From positions 2,784,001 to 2,848,000 of the forward strand of contig CAUVXB020000002.1 of NCBI GenBank assembly GCA_963555825.3: 64,000 nucleotides of DNA. Reading direction: 5' to 3'. Shown here in pieces: positions 32,173 through 56,898 of the stretch (position 1 is the stretch's first letter; the number at the start of each line of letters is the position of its first letter). The notes under the pieces are model-generated. The model did not search any database and was not told the origin of the DNA. It saw only the letters and a program-made list of their open reading frames with translations. A program made the position numbers and the translations under genes. Source of the DNA: Alphaproteobacteria bacterium. Lineage in GTDB: Bacteria > Pseudomonadota > Alphaproteobacteria > JAAXGF01.

Positions 32173-32429
32173 TGGGTCACCAGCAGACTTTAGACGGTGA
32201 CGCGGCCGGCGTCTGCTTTGTCGCGGGAACCGGACATCGATCGTCAACACTCTGAATTCCACGCCTGCCACGTCGGCTTTCGAGCGGAGAGCAGACCTCG
32301 CGGCGCGGCGCTGAGAATGGCAGAGCAATAATCCCCCACTTAAGCGGCCGGTCGATCCGGCTGCGGCGGACCAAAATGGGACCGCGTATAGCCTTCTGTC
32401 AGGGTTGCTCTGACTGGAAGGCGGGGGGG

Positions 32430-33929
32430 ATGTATCGGGTGGAGTTGTACGCACGGGTTCGGCGGGCGTGTCATGTCGAGGGGATGAGCACCCGCGAGGC
32501 CTCGCGGGTGTTTGGTGTAGACCGCAAGACGGTCCGTAAGATGCTGTCGTTCTCGGTGCCGCCAGGGTATCGCCGAAGCGCGCCGCCGAGGCGGCCAAAG
32601 CTGGGTCCGTTCACGGGAATCATCGATCGGATCTTGGAAGACGATCGGACCAGCCACCGCAAGCAACGGCACACTGCGAAGCGCATCTTCGACCGCCTCC
32701 GGGACGAGTACGGTTTCACGGGCGGCTACACCATCGTGAAGGACTACGTTCGTGAGCAGGGGCTTCGGTCGCGTGAGGTGTTCGTGCCACTCTCCCATTC
32801 CCCCGGTCACGCCCAGGCGGACTTCGGCGAAGCGATGGCGGTGATCGGCGGCGCGTTACGGAAGATCCACTTCCTTGCCTTCGACCTTCCCCACAGTGAT
32901 GGTTGCTTTGTTGCGGCCTATCCGGCGGAGACGACCGAAGCATTCTGCGATGGCCACAACGCGGCGTTTGCCTTCTTCGGCGGCGTCCCCCGATCCATCC
33001 TGTACGACAACACCAAGCTGGCGGTTGCCCGGATCCTGGGCGATGGGAAGCGGCAGCGAACGCGCGTCTTCACGGAGCTTCAGTCCCACTATCTGTTCGA
33101 GGACAGGTTCGGCCGGCCGGGCAAGGGCAACGACAAGGGCAAGGTCGAGGGACTGGTCGGCTTCATCCGGCGGAACTTCCTGGTCCCCGTCCCGCGTGCC
33201 GAGAGCTTCGCGGCCCTCAACGATGCTCTCGCCGAACAGTGCCGCCGGCGCCAGGCGGCGCGGCTGCGGGGCCACAAGGAGACCATCGGCGAGCGTCTCG
33301 AGCGGGATCGTCAAGTTCTCTTGCCATTGCCGCCTGCTCCCTATGATGCCTGCGATAAGCGCCCTGGACGGGCGAGTTCGCTGTCGCTGGTGCGTTACCG
33401 CAGCAACGACTATTCCGTGCCCGTGGCCTACGGCCACCGTGAGGTGCTCATCCGGGGCTACGTCGATGAGGTGGTGATCAGCTGCGGGGCCGAGGTGATC
33501 GCCCGGCACCGCCGGTCCTACGACAGCGAGGACCTGATCTTCGACCCGCTGCATTACCTGCCCTTGATCGAGCAGAAGATCGGCGCCCTCGACCAGGCCG
33601 CGCCATTGGCGGGCTGGGACCTGCCCGAGGCCTTCATCACTCTGCGGCGGCTCCTCGAAGCTCGTATGGGCAAGGCAGGCAAGCGCGAGTACGTCCAGGT
33701 GCTCCGTCTACTGGAGACCTTCCGGCTCGAGGAGGTCGAGGGTGCGGTCGGCGACGCCCTGCGGCTCGGCGCAATCGGCTTTGATGCGGTGAAGCACCTG
33801 GTACTGTGCCGCATCGAGCGGCGGCCGCCCAGGCTCAACCTCGACGTCTATCCGTATCTGCCGCGCGCCCGGGTCGCGATGACGTCCGCCAAGTCGTACA
33901 TGAGCCTGCTGTCGGGGCTCGGCGCATGA
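32430..33929 (+). CDS. istA: IS21 transposase
   Basis: QADFG, LYDN, KGKVE. Confidence 0.95.
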   Translation: MYRVELYARVRRACHVEGMSTREASRVFGVDRKTVRKMLSFSVPPGYRRSAPPRRPKLGPFTGIIDRILEDDRTSHRKQRHTAKRIFDRLRDEYGFTGGYTIVKDYVREQGLRSREVFVPLSHSPGHAQADFGEAMAVIGGALRKIHFLAFDLPHSDGCFVAAYPAETTEAFCDGHNAAFAFFGGVPRSILYDNTKLAVARILGDGKRQRTRVFTELQSHYLFEDRFGRPGKGNDKGKVEGLVGFIRRNFLVPVPRAESFAALNDALAEQCRRRQAARLRGHKETIGERLERDRQVLLPLPPAPYDACDKRPGRASSLSLVRYRSNDYSVPVAYGHREVLIRGYVDEVVISCGAEVIARHRRSYDSEDLIFDPLHYLPLIEQKIGALDQAAPLAGWDLPEAFITLRRLLEARMGKAGKREYVQVLRLLETFRLEEVEGAVGDALRLGAIGFDAVKHLVLCRIERRPPRLNLDVYPYLPRARVAMTSAKSYMSLLSGLGA

Positions 33930-34690
33930 CCGACACACCGCAAGTGCTGCTCGCCCACCACCTCAAGACGCTGAAGCTGCCGACCTTCCTGCGCGAGTAC
34001 GACAAGATCGCCCGGCAGTGCGCCTCGGAAGGCGTCGATCACGTCCGCTACCTGTTGAGACTCGCCGAGCTCGAGCTGATCGACCGCGAGCGCCGCATGG
34101 TCGAGCGGCGCATCAAGGCGGCGCGCTTCCCCGTGGTCAAGAGCCTCGACAGCTTCGACTTCAAGGTCATCCCCTCGCTCAACAAGGCGCTGGTCCTGGA
34201 GCTGGCCCGCTGCGAGTACATCGAGCGCCGCGAGAACCTCATCGCGCTCGGCAACAGTGGGACCGGCAAGACCCACATCGCCCTCGGTCTCGGCCTGGCG
34301 GCCTGCCAGAAGGGCCTCTCGGTCGGCTTCATCACCGCCGCCGCGCTGGTCCACGAACTCATCGAGGCCCGCGATGACAAGCAGCTGCTGAGGTTCCAGA
34401 AGAAGCTCGCCACCTACAAGCTTCTGATCGTCGACGAACTCGGCTTCGTGCCGCTGTCGAAGACCGGCGCCGAGCTGTTGTTCGAGGTGTTCAGCCAACG
34501 CTACGAGCGGGGCTCGACCCTGGTCACCACCAATCTGCCCTTCGACGAATGGACCGAGGTGTTCGGCTCCGAGCGCCTCACCGGCGCGCTCCTCGATCGC
34601 CTCACCCACCACGTCAACATCCTCGAGATGAACGGTGACAGCTACAGGCTCAACCAGAGCCGCAGGCGTCAAACCCCGACTGCTAACTGA
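33926..34690 (+). CDS. istB: IS21 helper AAA+ ATPase
   Basis: GNSGTGKT, LLIVDELG, TTNLPF, LLDRL. Confidence 0.95.
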   Translation: MTDTPQVLLAHHLKTLKLPTFLREYDKIARQCASEGVDHVRYLLRLAELELIDRERRMVERRIKAARFPVVKSLDSFDFKVIPSLNKALVLELARCEYIERRENLIALGNSGTGKTHIALGLGLAACQKGLSVGFITAAALVHELIEARDDKQLLRFQKKLATYKLLIVDELGFVPLSKTGAELLFEVFSQRYERGSTLVTTNLPFDEWTEVFGSERLTGALLDRLTHHVNILEMNGDSYRLNQSRRRQTPTAN

Positions 34691-34881
34691 ACCGACCACC
34701 CAGCCCACGCTTGACCCCGTGGGCCCACAGGTCCCTCCCGCGCGCGCCGCCGCGTCAGCCTGTTGAGGGCACGCCGCGTCGCGCGCGGGGCCCTCCCGTG
34801 GACTACGGGGACAAGCCCGCAGCCGCCAAGCGGTCCCTTCTTACACCGCCGAGGTGGTCCCTTTTTGCTCCGCCATTGACA

Positions 34882-35497: not shown

Positions 35498-35836
35498 ATG
35501 ACCACATCCGACTCGACCGTCGAACGCGGCAGCGGCAACGTCTTCGCGGACCTCGGCCATCCCGAGGCCGATGCCCATCTGCTCAAGGCGGACCTCGTCA
35601 CCCGCATCGACACCATCATCCGCCAGCGCGGCATCACCCAGACCGAGGCGGCACGCCTGCTCGGCCTCACCCAGCCCGACGTGTCGCGGCTGCTCAGGGG
35701 CGACTTCCGCGAGTATTCCCTGGAACGCTTTTTCCGCCTGTTCACCGCCCTCGGCCGCGATATCGACATCGTCATCCGCCAGCCACGCTCGGCCTCCGGC
35801 GGGAAGCTGCGCATCGCGGCAAGCGAGATCGGCTGA
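35498..35836 (+). CDS. XRE-HTH antitoxin (HigA-like)
   Basis: GSGNVFADLG, TQTEAARLLGLTQPDVSRL, YSLERF. Confidence 0.88.
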   Translation: MTTSDSTVERGSGNVFADLGHPEADAHLLKADLVTRIDTIIRQRGITQTEAARLLGLTQPDVSRLLRGDFREYSLERFFRLFTALGRDIDIVIRQPRSASGGKLRIAASEIG

Positions 35837-36082
35837 CGCCACCCTCGCGTCGCCCCTCGCGGCGGGTCTGCTACGCAGCCGGCCCGCCCTCCGCCGCTCC
35901 GGTTGACCGCCATACCCGATATTCGCTACCCCTCCAGAACTCATCGTGCCGCGTTCGCGAACCGATTGCGCGACACTCTGCATCATGACCCCATTCTTCC
36001 GATGGAGGAGTACGCGAGTGCCCAGATCCGCATCCCCTGACGACTACGAACTCCTGACAGTGTCCGACGCGATCCATCGTGG

Positions 36083-38134
36083 GATGAGTTCGTGGACCAG
36101 CGCGGCGGCGGTGATGAAGCCGACCGAGAGGCCCTTCTGGCAGGCCGCCAGGCCGAGACCGAGGGCGATGTGGGTCTTGCCGGTCCCACTGTTGCCGAGC
36201 GCGATGAGGTTCTCGCGGCGCTCGATGTACTCGCAGCGGGCCAGCTCCAGGACCAGCGCCTTGTTGAGCGAGGGGATGACCTTGAAGTCGAAGCTGTCGA
36301 GGCTCTTGACCACGGGGAAGCGCGCCGCCTTGATGCGCCGCTCGACCATGCGGCGCTCGCGGTCGATCAGCTCGAGCTCGGCGAGTCTCAACAGGTAGCG
36401 GACGTGATCGACGCCTTCCGAGGCGCACTGCCGGGCGATCTTGTCGTACTCGCGCAGGAAGGTCGGCAGCTTCAGCGTCTTGAGGTGGTGGGCGAGCAGC
36501 ACTTGCGGTGTGTCGGTCATGCGCCGAGCCCCGACAGCAGGCTCATGTACGACTTGGCGGACGTCATCGCGACCCGGGCGCGCGGCAGATACGGATAGAC
36601 GTCGAGGTTGAGCCTGGGCGGCCGCCGCTCGATGCGGCACAGTACCAGGTGCTTCACCGCATCAAAGCCGATTGCGCCGAGCCGCAGGGCGTCGCCGACC
36701 GCACCCTCGACCTCCTCGAGCCGGAAGGTCTCCAGTAGACGGAGCACCTGGACGTACTCGCGCTTGCCTGCCTTGCCCATACGAGCTTCGAGGAGCCGCC
36801 GCAGAGTGATGAAGGCCTCGGGCAGGTCCCAGCCCGCCAATGGCGCGGCCTGGTCGAGGGCGCCGATCTTCTGCTCGATCAAGGGCAGGTAATGCAGCGG
36901 GTCGAAGATCAGGTCCTCGCTGTCGTAGGACCGGCGGTGCCGGGCGATCACCTCGGCCCCGCAGCTGATCACCACCTCATCGACGTAGCCCCGGATGAGC
37001 ACCTCACGGTGGCCGTAGGCCACGGGCACGGAATAGTCGTTGCTGCGGTAACGCACCAGCGACAGCGAACTCGCCCGTCCAGGGCGCTTATCGCAGGCAT
37101 CATAGGGAGCAGGCGGCAATGGCAAGAGAACTTGACGATCCCGCTCGAGACGCTCGCCGATGGTCTCCTTGTGGCCCCGCAGCCGCGCCGCCTGGCGCCG
37201 GCGGCACTGTTCGGCGAGAGCATCGTTGAGGGCCGCGAAGCTCTCGGCACGCGGGACGGGGACCAGGAAGTTCCGCCGGATGAAGCCGACCAGTCCCTCG
37301 ACCTTGCCCTTGTCGTTGCCCTTGCCCGGCCGGCCGAACCTGTCCTCGAACAGATAGTGGGACTGAAGCTCCGTGAAGACGCGCGTTCGCTGCCGCTTCC
37401 CATCGCCCAGGATCCGGGCAACCGCCAGCTTGGTGTTGTCGTACAGGATGGATCGGGGGACGCCGCCGAAGAAGGCAAACGCCGCGTTGTGGCCATCGCA
37501 GAATGCTTCGGTCGTCTCCGCCGGATAGGCCGCAACAAAGCAACCATCACTGTGGGGAAGGTCGAAGGCAAGGAAGTGGATCTTCCGTAACGCGCCGCCG
37601 ATCACCGCCATCGCTTCGCCGAAGTCCGCCTGGGCGTGACCGGGGGAATGGGAGAGTGGCACGAACACCTCACGCGACCGAAGCCCCTGCTCACGAACGT
37701 AGTCCTTCACGATGGTGTAGCCGCCCGTGAAACCGTACTCGTCCCGGAGGCGGTCGAAGATGCGCTTCGCAGTGTGCCGTTGCTTGCGGTGGCTGGTCCG
37801 ATCGTCTTCCAAGATCCGATCGATGATTCCCGTGAACGGACCCAGCTTTGGCCGCCTCGGCGGCGCGCTTCGGCGATACCCTGGCGGCACCGAGAACGAC
37901 AGCATCTTACGGACCGTCTTGCGGTCTACACCAAACACCCGCGAGGCCTCGCGGGTGCTCATCCCCTCGACATGACACGCCCGCCGAACCCGTGCGTACA
38001 ACTCCACCCGATACATCCCCCCCGCCTTCCAGTCAGAGCAACCCTGACAGAAGGCTATACGCGGTCCCATTTTGGTCCGCCGCAGCCGGATCGACCGGCC
38101 GCTTCAGTGGGGGATTATTGCTCTGCCGTTCTCA
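36083..38134 (-). mobile_element. IS21 copy 2: intact istA (36517-38016), istB truncated, right end lost
   Basis: Matches copy 1 until 36083. Confidence 0.93.
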
Positions 38135-38142
38135 GGTGTTTC

Positions 38143-38175
38143 TTTCTTCACACACCGCTGCACTAAAGTGCGCTG
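38143..38175 (-). promoter_or_regulatory. candidate oriT
   Basis: Hairpin GCACT-TT-AGTGC followed by AGCGGTGTGTG, similar to MOBF nic regions (..GGTGT^G), about 190 bp upstream of the relaxase. Confidence 0.45.
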
Positions 38176-38359
38176 GGCCAAGGAGGCTGTTTCTGGAGAT
38201 CGGTCGATGAGGGATGTTCCGCTTGGCAAATCCCGGTAACGATCGGACGCTTATGAGGATTTTCGCTCCAGTAGTCATGGACGCCGTCCCGGCCCCGGGC
38301 CGGAAGGCGGCGCTTGGCTCCGTCGCCGCGGTCATTCCCCCTGCCTTGCGGAGCTCATC

Positions 38360-51108: not shown

Positions 51109-52472
51109 GAATCTTGTGTACGGCGTTGAAATGAAGGCGGCGTATCCTGGTGATTGTTGATGTCACCACTTGAGCTAAGCCAAGGAAGGATACGCCATGA
51201 AAGAGAATACCGTTGTTGCTTTTCAAAACCCATCTGATTTTCAGAAAGATCCGTTGACGGAAGTCCTACAAGCTGGAGCTCGCGAGTTGTTGGCCCAAGC
51301 CGTTGAGGCCGAGGTCTCCGTGTTTTTGGGTAGCCATGCGGCGCTTGTTGACGCCGCCGGCCGCCGCCGGGTTGTCCGCAATGGATATCTGCCGGAACGC
51401 TTCATCCAGACCGGGATCGGCCCGGTGAGCGTGCGCCAACCCCGTGTGCGGGACCGGGGGGACGGCGCCATCCGCTTCACGTCGGCGATCCTGCCGCGCT
51501 ATCTGCGCCGCGCCAAGAGCCTGGAAGACCTTTTGCCATGGCTGTATCTGAAGGGCATTTCCACCGGCGACTTCGGGGAAGCCTTGGCGGCGCTCCTGGG
51601 GAGCTCCGCGCCGGGGCTTTCGGCCTCCACGATCACCCGGCTGAAAGAGGTCTGGGGGGTTGAGGCGGAGCGCTGGCAACGGCGCGACCTCACGGCCAAG
51701 CGCTACGTCTATTTCTGGGTGGACGGCATCTATTTCAGCGCCCGCATGGAGGAAGAGAAGCAGTGCATCCTGGTGATCGTCGGGGCCACGGACAAGGGAC
51801 AGAAGGAACTGATCGCCATCGCCGACGGCTATCGCGAAAGTGAGCAGTCCTGGCTCGAAGTTCTGCTCGATCTCAAGCGGCGCGGCCTTGAAATGGGTCC
51901 GCAACTGGCGCTCGGCGACGGCGCGCTCGGCTTCTGGAAGGCGCTCCGCCAAGTCTACCCAGGCGCCCGCGAGCAACGCTGCTGGGTTCACAAGACGGGC
52001 AACGTCTTGAACAAGCTGCCCAAGGGTCTGCAAAAGAAAGCCAAGGGGCGCCTGCAAGACATCTGGATGGCCGAAACCAGGAAGGATGCCGAGAGCGCCT
52101 TCGACTTCTTCCTGGAAGCCTACGGGCCGAAGTACGACAAGGCCGCGGCCTGCCTGGCCAAGGACCGCGACGTCCTGCTGACGTTCTACGACTTCCCCGC
52201 CGAGCACTGGAAGCATGTACGCACGACCAACCCCATCGAGAGCACGTTCGCCACGGTTCGTCTGCGCACCTACCGGACCAAGGGCTGCCTGTCGCGCAAG
52301 ACGGCGATGGCCATGGTCTTCAAACTATGCCAGTGCGCTCAGAGAAAATGGAGAAAACTCGATGGATCGAACCATCTCGCCGAGATCATTCGCGGCGTCA
52401 AATTCGTAGATGGAGAACGCCAGGATCGCGCCGCCGCATGATCAGCCCATACACAACTTTTGACAATAGCTC
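51109..52472 (+). mobile_element. IS256 element A, copy 3 (transposase 51197-52441), first 11 bp of IRL missing
   Basis: Same ORF as copies 1 and 2; begins at GAATCTTGTGTACGG. Confidence 0.95.
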
Positions 52473-52648: not shown

Positions 52649-54295
52649 GGCTGGCGGTAATATCCCTTCTCCAGTGTCAATGGCGGAGCAAAAAGGGACC
52701 ACCTCGGCGGTGTAAGAAGGGACCGCTTGGCGGCTGCGGGCTTGTCCCCGTAGTCCACGGGAGGGCCCCGCGCGCGACGCGGCGTGCCCTCAACAGGCTG
52801 ACGCGGCGGCGCGCGCGGGAGGGACCTGTGGGCCCACGGGGTCAAGCGTGGGCTGGGTGGTCGGTTCAGTTAGCAGTCGGGGTTTGACGCCTGCGGCTCT
52901 GGTTGAGCCTGTAGCTGTCACCGTTCATCTCGAGGATGTTGACGTGGTGGGTGAGGCGATCGAGGAGCGCGCCGGTGAGGCGCTCGGAGCCGAACACCTC
53001 GGTCCATTCGTCGAAGGGCAGATTGGTGGTGACCAGGGTCGAGCCCCGCTCGTAGCGTTGGCTGAACACCTCGAACAACAGCTCGGCGCCGGTCTTCGAC
53101 AGCGGCACGAAGCCGAGTTCGTCGACGATCAGAAGCTTGTAGGTGGCGAGCTTCTTCTGGAACCTCAGCAGCTGCTTGTCATCGCGGGCCTCGATGAGTT
53201 CGTGGACCAGCGCGGCGGCGGTGATGAAGCCGACCGAGAGGCCCTTCTGGCAGGCCGCCAGGCCGAGACCGAGGGCGATGTGGGTCTTGCCGGTCCCACT
53301 GTTGCCGAGCGCGATGAGGTTCTCGCGGCGCTCGATGTACTCGCAGCGGGCCAGCTCCAGGACCAGCGCCTTGTTGAGCGAGGGGATGACCTTGAAGTCG
53401 AAGCTGTCGAGGCTCTTGACCACGGGGAAGCGCGCCGCCTTGATGCGCCGCTCGACCATGCGGCGCTCGCGGTCGATCAGCTCGAGCTCGGCGAGTCTCA
53501 ACAGGTAGCGGACGTGATCGACGCCTTCCGAGGCGCACTGCCGGGCGATCTTGTCGTACTCGCGCAGGAAGGTCGGCAGCTTCAGCGTCTTGAGGTGGTG
53601 GGCGAGCAGCACTTGCGGTGTGTCGGTCATGCGCCGAGCCCCGACAGCAGGCTCATGTACGACTTGGCGGACGTCATCGCGACCCGGGCGCGCGGCAGAT
53701 ACGGATAGACGTCGAGGTTGAGCCTGGGCGGCCGCCGCTCGATGCGGCACAGTACCAGGTGCTTCACCGCATCAAAGCCGATTGCGCCGAGCCGCAGGGC
53801 GTCGCCGACCGCACCCTCGACCTCCTCGAGCCGGAAGGTCTCCAGTAGACGGAGCACCTGGACGTACTCGCGCTTGCCTGCCTTGCCCATACGAGCTTCG
53901 AGGAGCCGCCGCAGAGTGATGAAGGCCTCGGGCAGGTCCCAGCCCGCCAATGGCGCGGCCTGGTCGAGGGCGCCGATCTTCTGCTCGATCAAGGGCAGGT
54001 AATGCAGCGGGTCGAAGATCAGGTCCTCGCTGTCGTAGGACCGGCGGTGCCGGGCGATCACCTCGGCCCCGCAGCTGATCACCACCTCATCGACGTAGCC
54101 CCGGATGAGCACCTCACGGTGGCCGTAGGCCACGGGCACGGAATAGTCGTTGCTGCGGTAACGCACCAGCGACAGCGAACTCGCCCGTCCAGGGCGCTTA
54201 TCGCAGGCATCATAGGGAGCAGGCGGCAATGGCAAGAGAACTTGACGATCCCGCTCGAGACGCTCGCCGATGGTCTCCTTATATGAGGCGTTTGC

Positions 54296-54301
54296 TGTCA
54301 A
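54296..54301 (-). promoter_or_regulatory. outward-facing -35 hexamer (circle-junction promoter)
   Basis: TTGACA 15 nt inside the right end; equivalent TTGACT at 45681-45686 in element 1. Confidence 0.65.
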
Positions 54302-54595
54302 GGTGGATTTAATCTACGCCACATGATCGTCTCTTCCATTGGTTATGGCTTTGTATCCAGGGCGGGTCTTGCGATGAGTTCCGTGTTTCGTGCGAGTGAT
54401 CGCATCACCTTATATCCGGCAGCTCCGATCCGGCTTGCCACAATGCTGTATACATGGACCATCACAGGACGGGGATGGGACTAATCTTGTGGACGGCACC
54501 TTCGCCAAGGAGACATGCAGTCACACATCCAACCTGCCAACAAGCGTTCCCATCGGGGAATGAAGCCCGTTAGAACGCTGAGCTGATCCGCAGTC
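54302..54595 (-). ncRNA. bridge/seek RNA of IS110 element 2
   Basis: Four short segments match both halves of the target and both halves of the donor, each pair separated by a hairpin. Confidence 0.88.
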
Positions 54596-55729
54596 CTATT
54601 TGACGACAGCACCCACCGGGATCAGCCCGGTTTCCAGATACCGCCAAAGCGCGATCGCCAGTTTGCGGGCCAGGGCGACGATCATGACGCGCCTGATGCG
54701 CCCCTTCTGACCTTGGGTGCGGTCATGGAACCACTGGGTCAGAGCGCTATCGGGTTGATGGCGGACCCAAAGCCATGCGGCTTCGATCATGGCAACCCGT
54801 GCCAGCCGATTGCCCGCCTTGGAGATGCCTTGGCTGCGGCGCCCGTCGCCGCTGTCATAGGCACTGGGCGTGATCCCGATATAGCTTGCCACCTGTCGGC
54901 GATTGGCGAACTGGCGATAATAGACTTCCCGTGCGAGCGTCGTGGATAAGGCCGGGCCGAGGCCCTTTAAGCGCAGCAGCTGGTGACGCTTGCTTTCCGT
55001 GGCCACACACGGTGTCGGCGCTTGATCACGCTCACGCTCGACCTCGACGATCTGCGCTTGGACCTGGGCCAGTCTCGCGATCTCCCGCGCGATCTCGCGG
55101 CCGAGACGGTCCGGCAGGGGTCGGCCGTCTCCGGTGACCAGCGCCGCCGGTGTCAAGGTCTTGTAGCGCGCCTTGACATTGATGCCGCGAATGCCCTGAC
55201 CGAATAGCAGACCCTTGATCCGGTTGATGTGGGCGGTTCGCTCGCGGACCAATCGGTCACGTTCCCGATGAGAGCGGCGAAGGTCCTCCTCCGCGACGCT
55301 CGGAATCACCACCATGGAGCAGACATGACGCTCGCCGCGGCACCAGGCGATCAGCGTATGAAGAATATTCTCGACATCGATGCGGTCGGTCTTCACCCGC
55401 CGCGCCCGGCGGTTGACCCGCAAGCTGGCCGGCTCCATGACCAGACACTCGATGCCGCGCTGCTCGAGGAACCGCGCCAACCAGAAGCCGTCGTAGCCGG
55501 CCTCGTAGCACAGCGTTATCGTCGGCGTTCGACCCGTCACCTTGACCACCCGGTCCCGCGCCGCGTCCAGCTTGGCCATCAGTCCTTCAGCGTCGCCGCC
55601 CTTGATCGGATGCAAGCTCGGATTGCCCCGCCCCGGAGCCTGGATCGCCAAAAGCCAGCTGTTCTTGCTCAACTCCAGTGCCGCATAAATAGCGTGTTCA
55701 TTGGAGGTCGATACCGGAAACTGTGCCAT
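54596..55729 (-). CDS. IS110-family recombinase, intact
   Basis: ALELSKNSW, CYEAG, KTDRIDV, GLG, AYDSG, ISKAGN, VALARKL; AAGGAG RBS. Confidence 0.95.
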   Translation of the reverse strand: MAQFPVSTSNEHAIYAALELSKNSWLLAIQAPGRGNPSLHPIKGGDAEGLMAKLDAARDRVVKVTGRTPTITLCYEAGYDGFWLARFLEQRGIECLVMEPASLRVNRRARRVKTDRIDVENILHTLIAWCRGERHVCSMVVIPSVAEEDLRRSHRERDRLVRERTAHINRIKGLLFGQGIRGINVKARYKTLTPAALVTGDGRPLPDRLGREIAREIARLAQVQAQIVEVERERDQAPTPCVATESKRHQLLRLKGLGPALSTTLAREVYYRQFANRRQVASYIGITPSAYDSGDGRRSQGISKAGNRLARVAMIEAAWLWVRHQPDSALTQWFHDRTQGQKGRIRRVMIVALARKLAIALWRYLETGLIPVGAVVK

Positions 55730-56898
55730 CGTGTCGCTCCTTCTGATCGAGGTTGAAATAATCGAAGGAGCTTGAGGCTGCGTCCTTCAGCCTCATAGCA
55801 TCTTGTGGCCCCGCAGCCGCGCCGCCTGGCGCCGGCGGCACTGTTCGGCGAGAGCATCGTTGAGGGCCGCGAAGCTCTCGGCACGCGGGACGGGGACCAG
55901 GAAGTTCCGCCGGATGAAGCCGACCAGTCCCTCGACCTTGCCCTTGTCGTTGCCCTTGCCCGGCCGGCCGAACCTGTCCTCGAACAGATAGTGGGACTGA
56001 AGCTCCGTGAAGACGCGCGTTCGCTGCCGCTTCCCATCGCCCAGGATCCGGGCAACCGCCAGCTTGGTGTTGTCGTACAGGATGGATCGGGGGACGCCGC
56101 CGAAGAAGGCAAACGCCGCGTTGTGGCCATCGCAGAATGCTTCGGTCGTCTCCGCCGGATAGGCCGCAACAAAGCAACCATCACTGTGGGGAAGGTCGAA
56201 GGCAAGGAAGTGGATCTTCCGTAACGCGCCGCCGATCACCGCCATCGCTTCGCCGAAGTCCGCCTGGGCGTGACCGGGGGAATGGGAGAGTGGCACGAAC
56301 ACCTCACGCGACCGAAGCCCCTGCTCACGAACGTAGTCCTTCACGATGGTGTAGCCGCCCGTGAAACCGTACTCGTCCCGGAGGCGGTCGAAGATGCGCT
56401 TCGCAGTGTGCCGTTGCTTGCGGTGGCTGGTCCGATCGTCTTCCAAGATCCGATCGATGATTCCCGTGAACGGACCCAGCTTTGGCCGCCTCGGCGGCGC
56501 GCTTCGGCGATACCCTGGCGGCACCGAGAACGACAGCATCTTACGGACCGTCTTGCGGTCTACACCAAACACCCGCGAGGCCTCGCGGGTGCTCATCCCC
56601 TCGACATGACACGCCCGCCGAACCCGTGCGTACAACTCCACCCGATACATCCCCCCCGCCTTCCAGTCAGAGCAACCCTGACAGAAGGCTATACGCGGTC
56701 CCATTTTGGTCCGCCGCAGCCGGATCGACCGGCCGCTTCAGTGGGGGATTATTGCTCTGCCGTTCTCACCTGCCGTCGTAACAAAATCCTGCCTTGGAGC
56801 GGCCCATTGTCACGAATAGCCGATTTCGGCCGTTCGTCTCGACACAAAAAACGCACTAAATCAATGACTTAGATTTTCCATACCAGACCCACACCCCT

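Follow-up and report, generated by a model that had tools for sequence, protein, structure and literature searches.

Within a 64,000-nucleotide stretch of the genome of an Alphaproteobacteria bacterium (GenBank assembly GCA_963555825.3, contig CAUVXB020000002.1, positions 2,784,001 to 2,848,000; hereafter the window, in whose own numbering all coordinates are given), we find at 54278-55804 what is very probably a complete IS110-family insertion sequence whose right-end non-coding region encodes a bridge/seek RNA that guides recognition of both target and donor. The anatomy of this element, its site specificity within its own genome, and the covariation of guides and helices with flanks and ends among its relatives are observed directly. 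In the mechanism that we propose, an RNA of ~170 nt with two arms would be made from the right-end non-coding region. In its target arm a stem would close an internal loop, and in its donor arm AGCAU and AUAUAAG, placed around a conserved hairpin, would match the joined ends of a circle (...CATAT-AAG-ATGCT...), for which the ends of the element predict the junction ...GCCTCATAT-AAG-ATGCTATGAGG.... The RNA-bound recombinase, with a RuvC-like domain carrying E19, E76, D115 and D118 and with a C-terminal Ser293, would then bring donor and target together and exchange strands at their common core without target duplication. RNA binding, circle formation, strand exchange and programmability are expected here by analogy with IS621, ISEc11 and ISEc21, and that the element is active and reprogrammable, as the original prediction had called it, is likewise something we infer.

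The limits of the element are exact. Across the two contigs of the genome (6.04 Mb) there are 11 full copies at 100% identity, together with truncated and diverged pieces, and in all eleven the similarity breaks off at these same two bases. The flanks align end to end with the empty istA site and have AAG alone in common, and a filled site differs from an empty one by the element plus one AAG, with no target duplication. On the minus strand, 55810-55790 reads ...GGGGCCAC-AAG-ATGCTATGAGGC... and 54289-54272 reads ...GCCTCATAT-AAG-GAGACC.... The parts of the element outside the RNA are the following.

54278-55804, minus strand: the whole insertion sequence, 1,527 bp including AAG at both ends, equal to 1,524 bp plus one core copy.
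55790-55797, minus strand: left sub-terminal inverted repeat TATGAGGC, 4 nt inside the left end (ATGC extension), from a reading of the sequence.
54282-54289, minus strand: right sub-terminal inverted repeat GCCUCAUA, followed by U and the core and kept in relatives, read in the same way.
54596-55729, minus strand: recombinase/transposase gene of 377 aa, an open reading frame (ORF) with an AAGGAG ribosome-binding site 7 nt upstream of its ATG.
54296-54301, minus strand: TTGACA near the right end, again a sequence reading, with TTGAC conserved in close relatives.

The sub-terminal inverted repeats are 8 bp each (TATGAGGC at 55797-55790 and GCCTCATA at 54289-54282); for the IS1111 group, Durrant et al. 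2024 (PMC11208160) give repeats of 7-17 bp. The non-coding lengths are 72 nt from left core to ATG and 315 nt from stop to right core. The element belongs to the IS110 family and is laid out like the IS1111 group: the left end is short, the sub-terminal repeats have 8 bp, and the recombinase gene is followed by a long non-coding region. The provisional assignment to the IS1111 group is one of architecture only. Family and layout are as the original prediction had them. In a circle, TTGACA would lie 17 nt from the left-end GATGCT and could form a putative junction promoter. A terminator scan of 54200-55900 returned a single terminator-like site, on the wrong strand and across the right junction.

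The 377-aa protein, which is full length relative to its relatives, exceeds the Pfam cut-offs for DEDD_Tnp_IS110 (PF01548; 38.7 against 29) and Transposase_20 (PF02371; 60.9 against 21.3), and scores 204.4 bits against a cut-off of 140 with NCBIfam NF033542, the IS110 family RNA-guided transposase. Its AlphaFold model, built on 38 sequences, has a pLDDT of 84.1, and in a Foldseek search of the PDB the nine best matches were all chains of IS621/ISCro4 synaptic complexes (8wt6, 8wt9, 9t56; E 1e-11 to 8e-10). Of 77 sequences compared, 76-77 have E76, D115 and D118. Every one of the 74 homologs that can be aligned at the first catalytic position has Glu there; in the model this residue, Glu19, ends the strand 13-19, and it aligns with the Asp of GIDL/GLDV in IS4321, IS5708 and ISSso6, so that it is acidic but not the canonical residue. 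At the C-terminus, where a Ser/Thr-Gly was sought within a G..P....S(T)G motif, the protein has GITPSAYDSG, with P288 in 76 of 77 sequences and both S293 and G294 in 77 of 77, and this Ser-Gly aligns with the TG of IS4321. Identity to the transposases of IS4321, IS5708 and ISSso6 is 23%, 22% and 27%, respectively. Our literature search found no report of a Glu (EEDD) variant in the IS110 family, and the ISfinder-based supplementary tables of Durrant and of Siddiquee may hold this clade.

The predicted RNA lies between the stop codon of the recombinase gene and the right end, and its parts can be listed in the order in which they would be transcribed.

54365-54534, minus strand: core of the predicted bridge/seek RNA, ~170 nt, with an outer stem from GGU to ACC (RNAalifold consensus of 26 sequences, pair counts and RNA-library contigs).
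54519-54529, minus strand: 5' strand of the stem closing the target loop, GAUGUGUGACU, predicted to pair with 54482-54474.
54507-54514, minus strand: 5' target guide GUCUCCUU, a complement to the top strand over core and right half (AAG-GAGAC).
54495-54506, minus strand: hairpin at the apex of the target loop, GGCGAAGGUGCC; by eye, all aligned relatives have it, with stems that have changed (for example GGU..ACC).
54486-54494, minus strand: 3' target guide GUCCACAAG, in the same sense as left half plus core and thus suited to pairing with the bottom strand.
54474-54482, minus strand: 3' strand of the stem closing the target loop, AGUCCCAUC (RNAalifold and pair counts).
54455-54468, minus strand: 5' strand of the long donor-arm stem, CCUGUGAUGGUCCA, predicted to pair with 54383-54368 and to enclose the donor-binding multiloop.
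54443-54447, minus strand: putative 5' donor guide AGCAU, complementary to the left end ATGCT.
54417-54440, minus strand: nearly invariant hairpin UGGCAAGCCGGAUCGGAGCUGCCG between the donor guides (pair counts in relatives).
54409-54415, minus strand: 3' donor guide AUAUAAG, in the same sense as right end plus core.
54392-54403, minus strand: small hairpin GCGAUCACUCGC inside the donor multiloop (RNAalifold and pair counts).
54368-54383, minus strand: 3' strand of the long donor-arm stem, CGGAACUCAUCGCAAG (duplex energies and minimum free energy fold).

The four guide motifs are those of the original prediction and stand, read on the minus strand, exactly where it had placed them (54514-54507, 54494-54486, 54447-54443 and 54415-54409). 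The minimum free energy fold of a 176-nt stretch recovers both target and donor arms, including the long donor stem. In 20,000 dinucleotide shuffles of the 315-nt non-coding region, the complement of the 8-mer AAGGAGAC occurred in 0.2%, CCACAAG in 2.5% and AUAUAAG in 1.0%, and the two target motifs jointly in none; AGCAU occurred in 34% and is therefore uninformative by itself.

Further evidence that these motifs are guides comes from the relatives, for which species-representative genomes were scanned and the best 80 of 405 related stretches kept (identity at least 49%). The 26 non-redundant non-coding regions of alignment A2 omit L023, L036, L041, L044, L046 and L048 as truncated or duplicate, and alignment A3 omits L051 and L052, which have a stop codon in frame. 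In A2 the two target-guide positions are the most variable parts, and each tracks the flanks of its own element. For example, the element at 54278-55804 combines GUCUCCUU and GUCCACAAG with ...CCACAAG|GAGAC, L022, L025, L027 and L030 combine the guide GUCCGCUU with |CGGAC, L028 has GGUAGCUU and GCCCGAUAG with ...CCCATAG|CTGCC, and L024 has GAGGUAGAG with ...GGGTAGAG|. The 3' target guide agrees with the left flank of its own element at 5.23 of 7 positions and with those of others at 2.90 (n=22), the 5' target-guide region agrees with the complement of its own right flank at 6.74 of 8 and with others at 4.58 (n=23), and for neither did any of 20,000 permutations reach the observed value; because many of the loci are copies within one genome and kinship inflates permutation tests, these figures are to be read as covariation and not as a calibrated probability. 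The result was unchanged for both guides after dereplication (n=15 and n=19), and the covariation covers relatives of 56-89% protein identity. The closest of these, L022 (89%), has guides that differ by four bases and a site that differs correspondingly, and close relatives target unrelated palindromic sites.

The helices covary as well. Across the whole consensus, 96.8% of 598 cells are paired, against 34-46% when the partners are slid by 1-3 columns, and 9 of the 23 pairs change on both sides; in the stem that closes the target loop, 97.1% of cells are paired, and both partners have changed in 6 of the 8 pairs. Several relatives have G or T before AG at the left junction while the right end is still AAG, and the core common to donor and target in the clade is therefore AG. 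The AAG core that had been proposed is indeed common to target and donor here, its third common base being, as these junction sequences read, particular to the target of this element. In a subclade (L039-L046, L048 and L049) the right junction reads ...CATATAAA|TCG, but the left junction and donor guide have AAG, so that the last core base differs systematically between junctions in several genomes; an A-run in the target makes the register ambiguous.

Within its own genome the element is site-specific. The insertion target sequence of the element in the window is GGCCACAAGGAGACC, and all 11 full copies lie at (C/T)CA(C/T)-AAG|GAGAC, in five kinds of site. Seven of them are in istA, at GGCCAC-AAG|GAGACC, and the other four have GTCCAC, ATCAC, GCCAT or GTCAC to the left and always GAGAC to the right. 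The proposed check, that every copy should sit in CCAC-AAG-GAGAC, thus came out with the right half invariant (11 of 11) and the left half variable. With istA the 3' target guide agrees at 8 of 9 positions, as had been stated, and with the site of the GTCCAC copy (C2:3454581) at 9 of 9. The gene broken by this latter copy encodes a large serine recombinase (Resolvase 3.4e-18, Recombinase 2e-5, and Zn_ribbon_recom 1.3e-4, which is below the cut-off), and the claim that the element is aimed at IS21 is correct only in part, the best match of the 3' guide being elsewhere. Unoccupied istA targets also occur in the window itself.

33270-33283, plus strand: unoccupied target in istA copy 1, an exact match to GGCCACAAGGAGAC.
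37163-37176, minus strand: unoccupied target in istA copy 2, an exact match to GGCCACAAGGAGAC.

Both were found as predicted, at 33270 (+) and 37163 (-); the flanks of the element align to them without a gap, and both are embedded in 111 istA bases that are mutually identical. At least two window matches at up to 2 mismatches occur in 13 of 100 shuffles, which makes the count of the empty-site pattern weak when taken alone. The statement that two unoccupied targets lie nearby was correct and too modest, as genome-wide there are 73 unoccupied istA targets (at most 2 mismatches over 40 bases), with 9 filled left junctions and 8 filled right junctions. The junctions in excess of the seven full copies belong to the 3'-truncated copies L012 and L013 and to the 5'-truncated copy L015. 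Five more unoccupied sites outside IS21 match CA(C/T)AAGGAGAC, and a search of the genome for a REP-like palindromic target GTCTCC...AAGGAGAC gave 0 matches.

The occupied istA sites admit a second explanation, namely that the element is RNA-guided but that most of its seven istA copies were spread by IS21 transposition of one interrupted IS21, with IstA and IstB supplied in trans by intact copies; this would require that an IS21 made 1.5 kb longer and left without IstA in cis be mobilised. IS21, an element of ~2.4 kb, is hugely expanded, with ~80 copies in the genome (73 empty and 7 filled target regions), and over 2,421 bp 48 of the 80, among them 6 of the 7 filled copies, show no difference from the consensus; this identity points to a very recent burst, as far as the copies' sequences tell. 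IS21 haplotypes were compared to tell independent insertions from such hitch-hiking and were uninformative, as the copies are too uniform and no haplotype separates the filled ones. The better match of the 3' guide to a site other than istA would also fit. On the other side, four full copies occupy non-IS21 sites with the same motif, L012, L013 and L015 are three more IS21 copies with differently truncated remnants, and one filled copy carries 3 private differences. We regard passive spread of most istA copies as unlikely, yet a serious possibility, and were it true, 'aimed at IS21' would be an overstatement.

As to the donor, guidance of both partners by the RNA was weighed through the second arm. 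A nearly invariant 31-nt donor-arm motif is present in 31 of the 32 loci L022-L053, the exception, L026, being at a contig end. The hairpin between the donor guides has 99.5% of its cells paired and 5 of its 8 pairs constant throughout, and one pair of the small donor hairpin switches between A-U (12 sequences) and C-G (9 sequences). For the long donor stem, the duplex energy with its own partner is -17.4 kcal/mol and with those of other elements -14.1, a difference reached in 0 of 20,000 permutations. From these sequence comparisons, the donor arm is a predicted three-way junction, in which the long stem surrounds AGCAU, the conserved hairpin followed by AUAUAAG, and the small hairpin; many IS1111 members seem to hold their donor-binding bases in a multiloop, according to Durrant et al. 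2024 (PMC11208160). The 3' donor guide equals the last 7 right-end bases in 49 of 63 loci and follows the right end through three states (ATATAAG in 33 loci, ATATGAG in 13 and ATACGAG in 3). In a further 11 loci the last base alone is different, and for three of the 63 the site taken as the right end is probably wrong. The 5' donor guide likewise has states that match those of the left end, namely AGGAU with ATCCT (9 loci), GGAAU with ATTCC (7 of 7 loci) and AGCAU with ATGCT, and many ATCCT loci that lack the exact complement read GGGAU in our table, which would pair through one G·T. Sequence covariation thus leaves the 3' donor guide well supported and the 5' donor guide only partly so. The two-loop logic of the original prediction holds to the same extent, for the target guides and the 3' donor guide.

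A different view of the same arm is that the RNA guides target choice alone, the protein recognising the ends through sub-terminal repeats or donor-flanking target halves, with AGCAU and AUAUAAG being conserved scaffold. In the ISEc11 study (Siddiquee et al. 2024, PMC11187229), an 82-nt RNA with both target matches was enough for transposition and the donor flanks had to match the target; here 42 of 71 loci have a mismatch in the 5' donor guide, and AGCAU by itself is the motif so common in shuffles. Against this stand the three states in which the 3' donor guide follows the right end, the pairing of GGAAU with ATTCC and of AGGAU with ATCCT, and the donor-binding multiloop bases predicted for many IS1111 members in PMC11208160. 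We consider a target-only RNA improbable, and continue with guidance of both target and donor. That the matches of the RNA region to flanks and ends are coincidental and that target choice is protein-based is scarcely credible, for all the unremarkable thermodynamic folding and the lack of an Rfam match, given the joint absence of both target motifs from the shuffles, the covariation of the guides with the flanks and the compensatory changes in the helices.

Several observations weigh against a bridge/seek RNA for target and donor. The 5' donor guide is the exact complement of the left end in only 29 of 71 loci (13 of 19 with ATGCT, 9 of 35 with ATCCT, 7 of 7 with ATTCC, 0 of 8 with ATACC and 0 of 2 with ATTCT), and L043, L046, L048 and L052 have AGGAU alongside a left end ATGCT. 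Kinship among the loci tempers the permutation tests, as noted above. Single-sequence folding energies are no better than those of shuffles (z = +0.79, +0.77 and +1.29), an Rfam scan of 53500-56500 with E up to 1 found no family, and a promoter scan of 54200-55900 found no promoter-like site in the linear element. The first catalytic position holds Glu instead of the canonical Asp. Finally, 73 perfect istA targets are still empty, from which it follows that activity is low, recent or regulated.

Six of the runs that hold the element are recorded as RNA, and the contigs of four were examined: a 386-nt contig of X18 covers 54273-54631, contigs of X19 tile 54277-54673, and contigs of X9 and X16 span the whole element, all of which shows presence in RNA libraries and not ends, strand or level. 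In X18 and X19 the non-coding region is covered and the body of the recombinase gene uncovered, which we did not use as evidence. A joint that goes back, as a circle junction would, was absent from the contigs of the four RNA runs, and since these are contigs only this is no evidence of absence. A joint from 54277 to 55802 in X9, X16 and X19 was considered as excision and rejected, as it equals the uninterrupted istA of other IS21 copies.

The relatives also suggest a broader and more tentative proposal, which we think doubtful as a whole. Together with the relatives that share at least 49% identity with it (80 loci), the element might form a separate IS110-family clade, neither of the classical IS110 group nor of the IS1111 group, marked by a Glu-Glu-Asp-Asp site, a protein of the 375-aa class, an AG core and the donor three-way junction. 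Four guide substitutions would have retargeted the element naturally from palindromic intergenic sites to coding sequences of mobile elements (IS21 istA and the large serine recombinase gene), making it a parasite that also brakes an IS21 burst now under way, of ~80 copies.

The interrupted IS21 and its immediate surroundings comprise the following genes.

55805-56704, minus strand: 5' part of the interrupted istA, with the rve domain (ORF, Pfam).
53627-54277, minus strand: 3' part of the interrupted istA, with Mu-transpos_C_2 (ORF, Pfam).
52866-53750: istB, after the interrupted istA (ORF, Pfam).
51197-52441, plus strand: IS256/Mutator-family transposase gene adjoining the interrupted IS21 (Transposase_mut, E 1.3e-58).

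The insertion splits istA between its rve and Mu-transpos_C_2 parts. Two further IS21 copies lie in the window, around 32200-34800 and 35700-38250, and the region around the interrupted IS21 is dense in mobile elements. A second, diverged IS110-family element runs from 44118 to ~45690 on the plus strand (~70% nucleotide identity). It has the same RNA scaffold with other guides, the 3' guide GCACUAUAG accompanying its left flank GGCACTAAAG and GGGAU accompanying its left end ATCCT; a TAA stop lies near the N-terminus of its recombinase (...TL*VAIEISRKSW), and its right end is apparently deleted. At the left end of the element under study, a hairpin GAGGCUG-AAGGACG-CAGCCUC (55768-55795, minus strand) overlaps the sub-terminal repeat and is kept in relatives with altered bases, for example GAGGCCG...CGGUCUC; it may shield the recombinase gene against read-through transcription.

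Some of the truncated pieces elsewhere in the genome are also informative. The copies L012 (C2:1500115-1501532) and L013 (C2:1618220-1619490) are 3'-truncated after position ~1423 or 1300, whereupon istA restarts 30-75 bases upstream of the target and an intact empty target follows; the L013 junction falls in the DNA that encodes the 5' target guide and shares microhomology with istA (CCTTGG/CCTGG). The arrangement suggests that filled and empty IS21 copies have recombined illegitimately or undergone conversion. The fragment L016 (C2:1770000-1770129) is a left end at 93% identity that follows TGTCTCCTCCTGGCTAC-AAG. Its left flank together with GAGAC, if present, would make a hairpin-like palindrome, comparable to the targets of close relatives (GTCCGCTT...AAAGCGGAC), and this sequence likeness suggests that the ancestral targets were palindromic intergenic repeats. 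A search of a plasmid collection returned distant relatives only, at up to 70% nucleotide identity, all annotated 'IS110 family transposase'.

The mechanism proposed here was already described in 2024, and the targeting of another element's transposase gene is known from ISEc21, so that the element leaves the picture of how IS110-type elements work unchanged and would not surprise a specialist. Our literature search found no report of an IS110-family element that targets istA, and the ISfinder-based supplementary target tables (Durrant, Siddiquee), which list hundreds of elements, may hold this clade. Three features go beyond the textbook: a Glu that never varies at the first catalytic position, a predicted donor three-way junction whose guides covary, and the very large pool of unoccupied IS21 targets. 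One genome offers a natural system in which the parts of a bridge/seek RNA can be read directly, with the element in 11 identical copies, occupied sites of five kinds and 78 unoccupied sites that differ in how well they match, and the relatives add a ladder on which each of the four guides changes with its DNA partner, the 5' donor guide only partly. The element could therefore serve as a test case for mismatch tolerance, for donor recognition in IS1111-like elements and for the role of Glu at the first catalytic position, where experiments so far have mainly concerned IS621. Site-specific insertion into another mobile element is reportedly found also in IS4321/IS5075 of the IS1111 family.

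Among known systems, the closest in layout are ISEc11, ISPa11, ISKpn4 and ISPst6 (Siddiquee et al. 2024, PMC11187229), which have a long non-coding region after tnp and sub-terminal inverted repeats as here. In the seekRNAs of these IS1111 elements, the top-strand match lies 5' of the bottom-strand match and the two overlap at the insertion point, which is the order read here. The same elements show no target duplication and are naturally retargeted through guide changes between close relatives, likewise as here, and they have a -35 box near the right end that suits a junction promoter, to which TTGACA may correspond. They differ in their family protein of 330-350 aa, compared with 377 aa here, in the first catalytic residue, which here is Glu, and in the target, our element being known from sequence alone. 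The fold of the recombinase is similar to that of IS621/ISCro4 (Durrant et al. 2024, PMC11208160; PDB 8wt6 and 9t56), with a Foldseek E of ~1e-11 and TM of 0.58-0.72. As in IS621, the predicted target loop precedes the donor loop, and the guides match the bottom strand for the left half and the top strand for the right half, with a short overlap at the core. Unlike IS621, the RNA lies at the right end and not the left, the guide order within each loop is reversed, the donor guides stand in a predicted three-way junction and not in a plain internal loop, the inverted repeats, of 8 bp, are longer, and sequence identity is ~20%. Finally, ISEc21, an IS110-type element that targets the codons of IS3 transposase genes around the second D of DDE (PMC11187229), is a precedent for the targeting of one insertion sequence by another, with its RNA upstream, the opposite guide order and an IS3 target, whereas the element described here has its RNA downstream and IS21 istA as its target.

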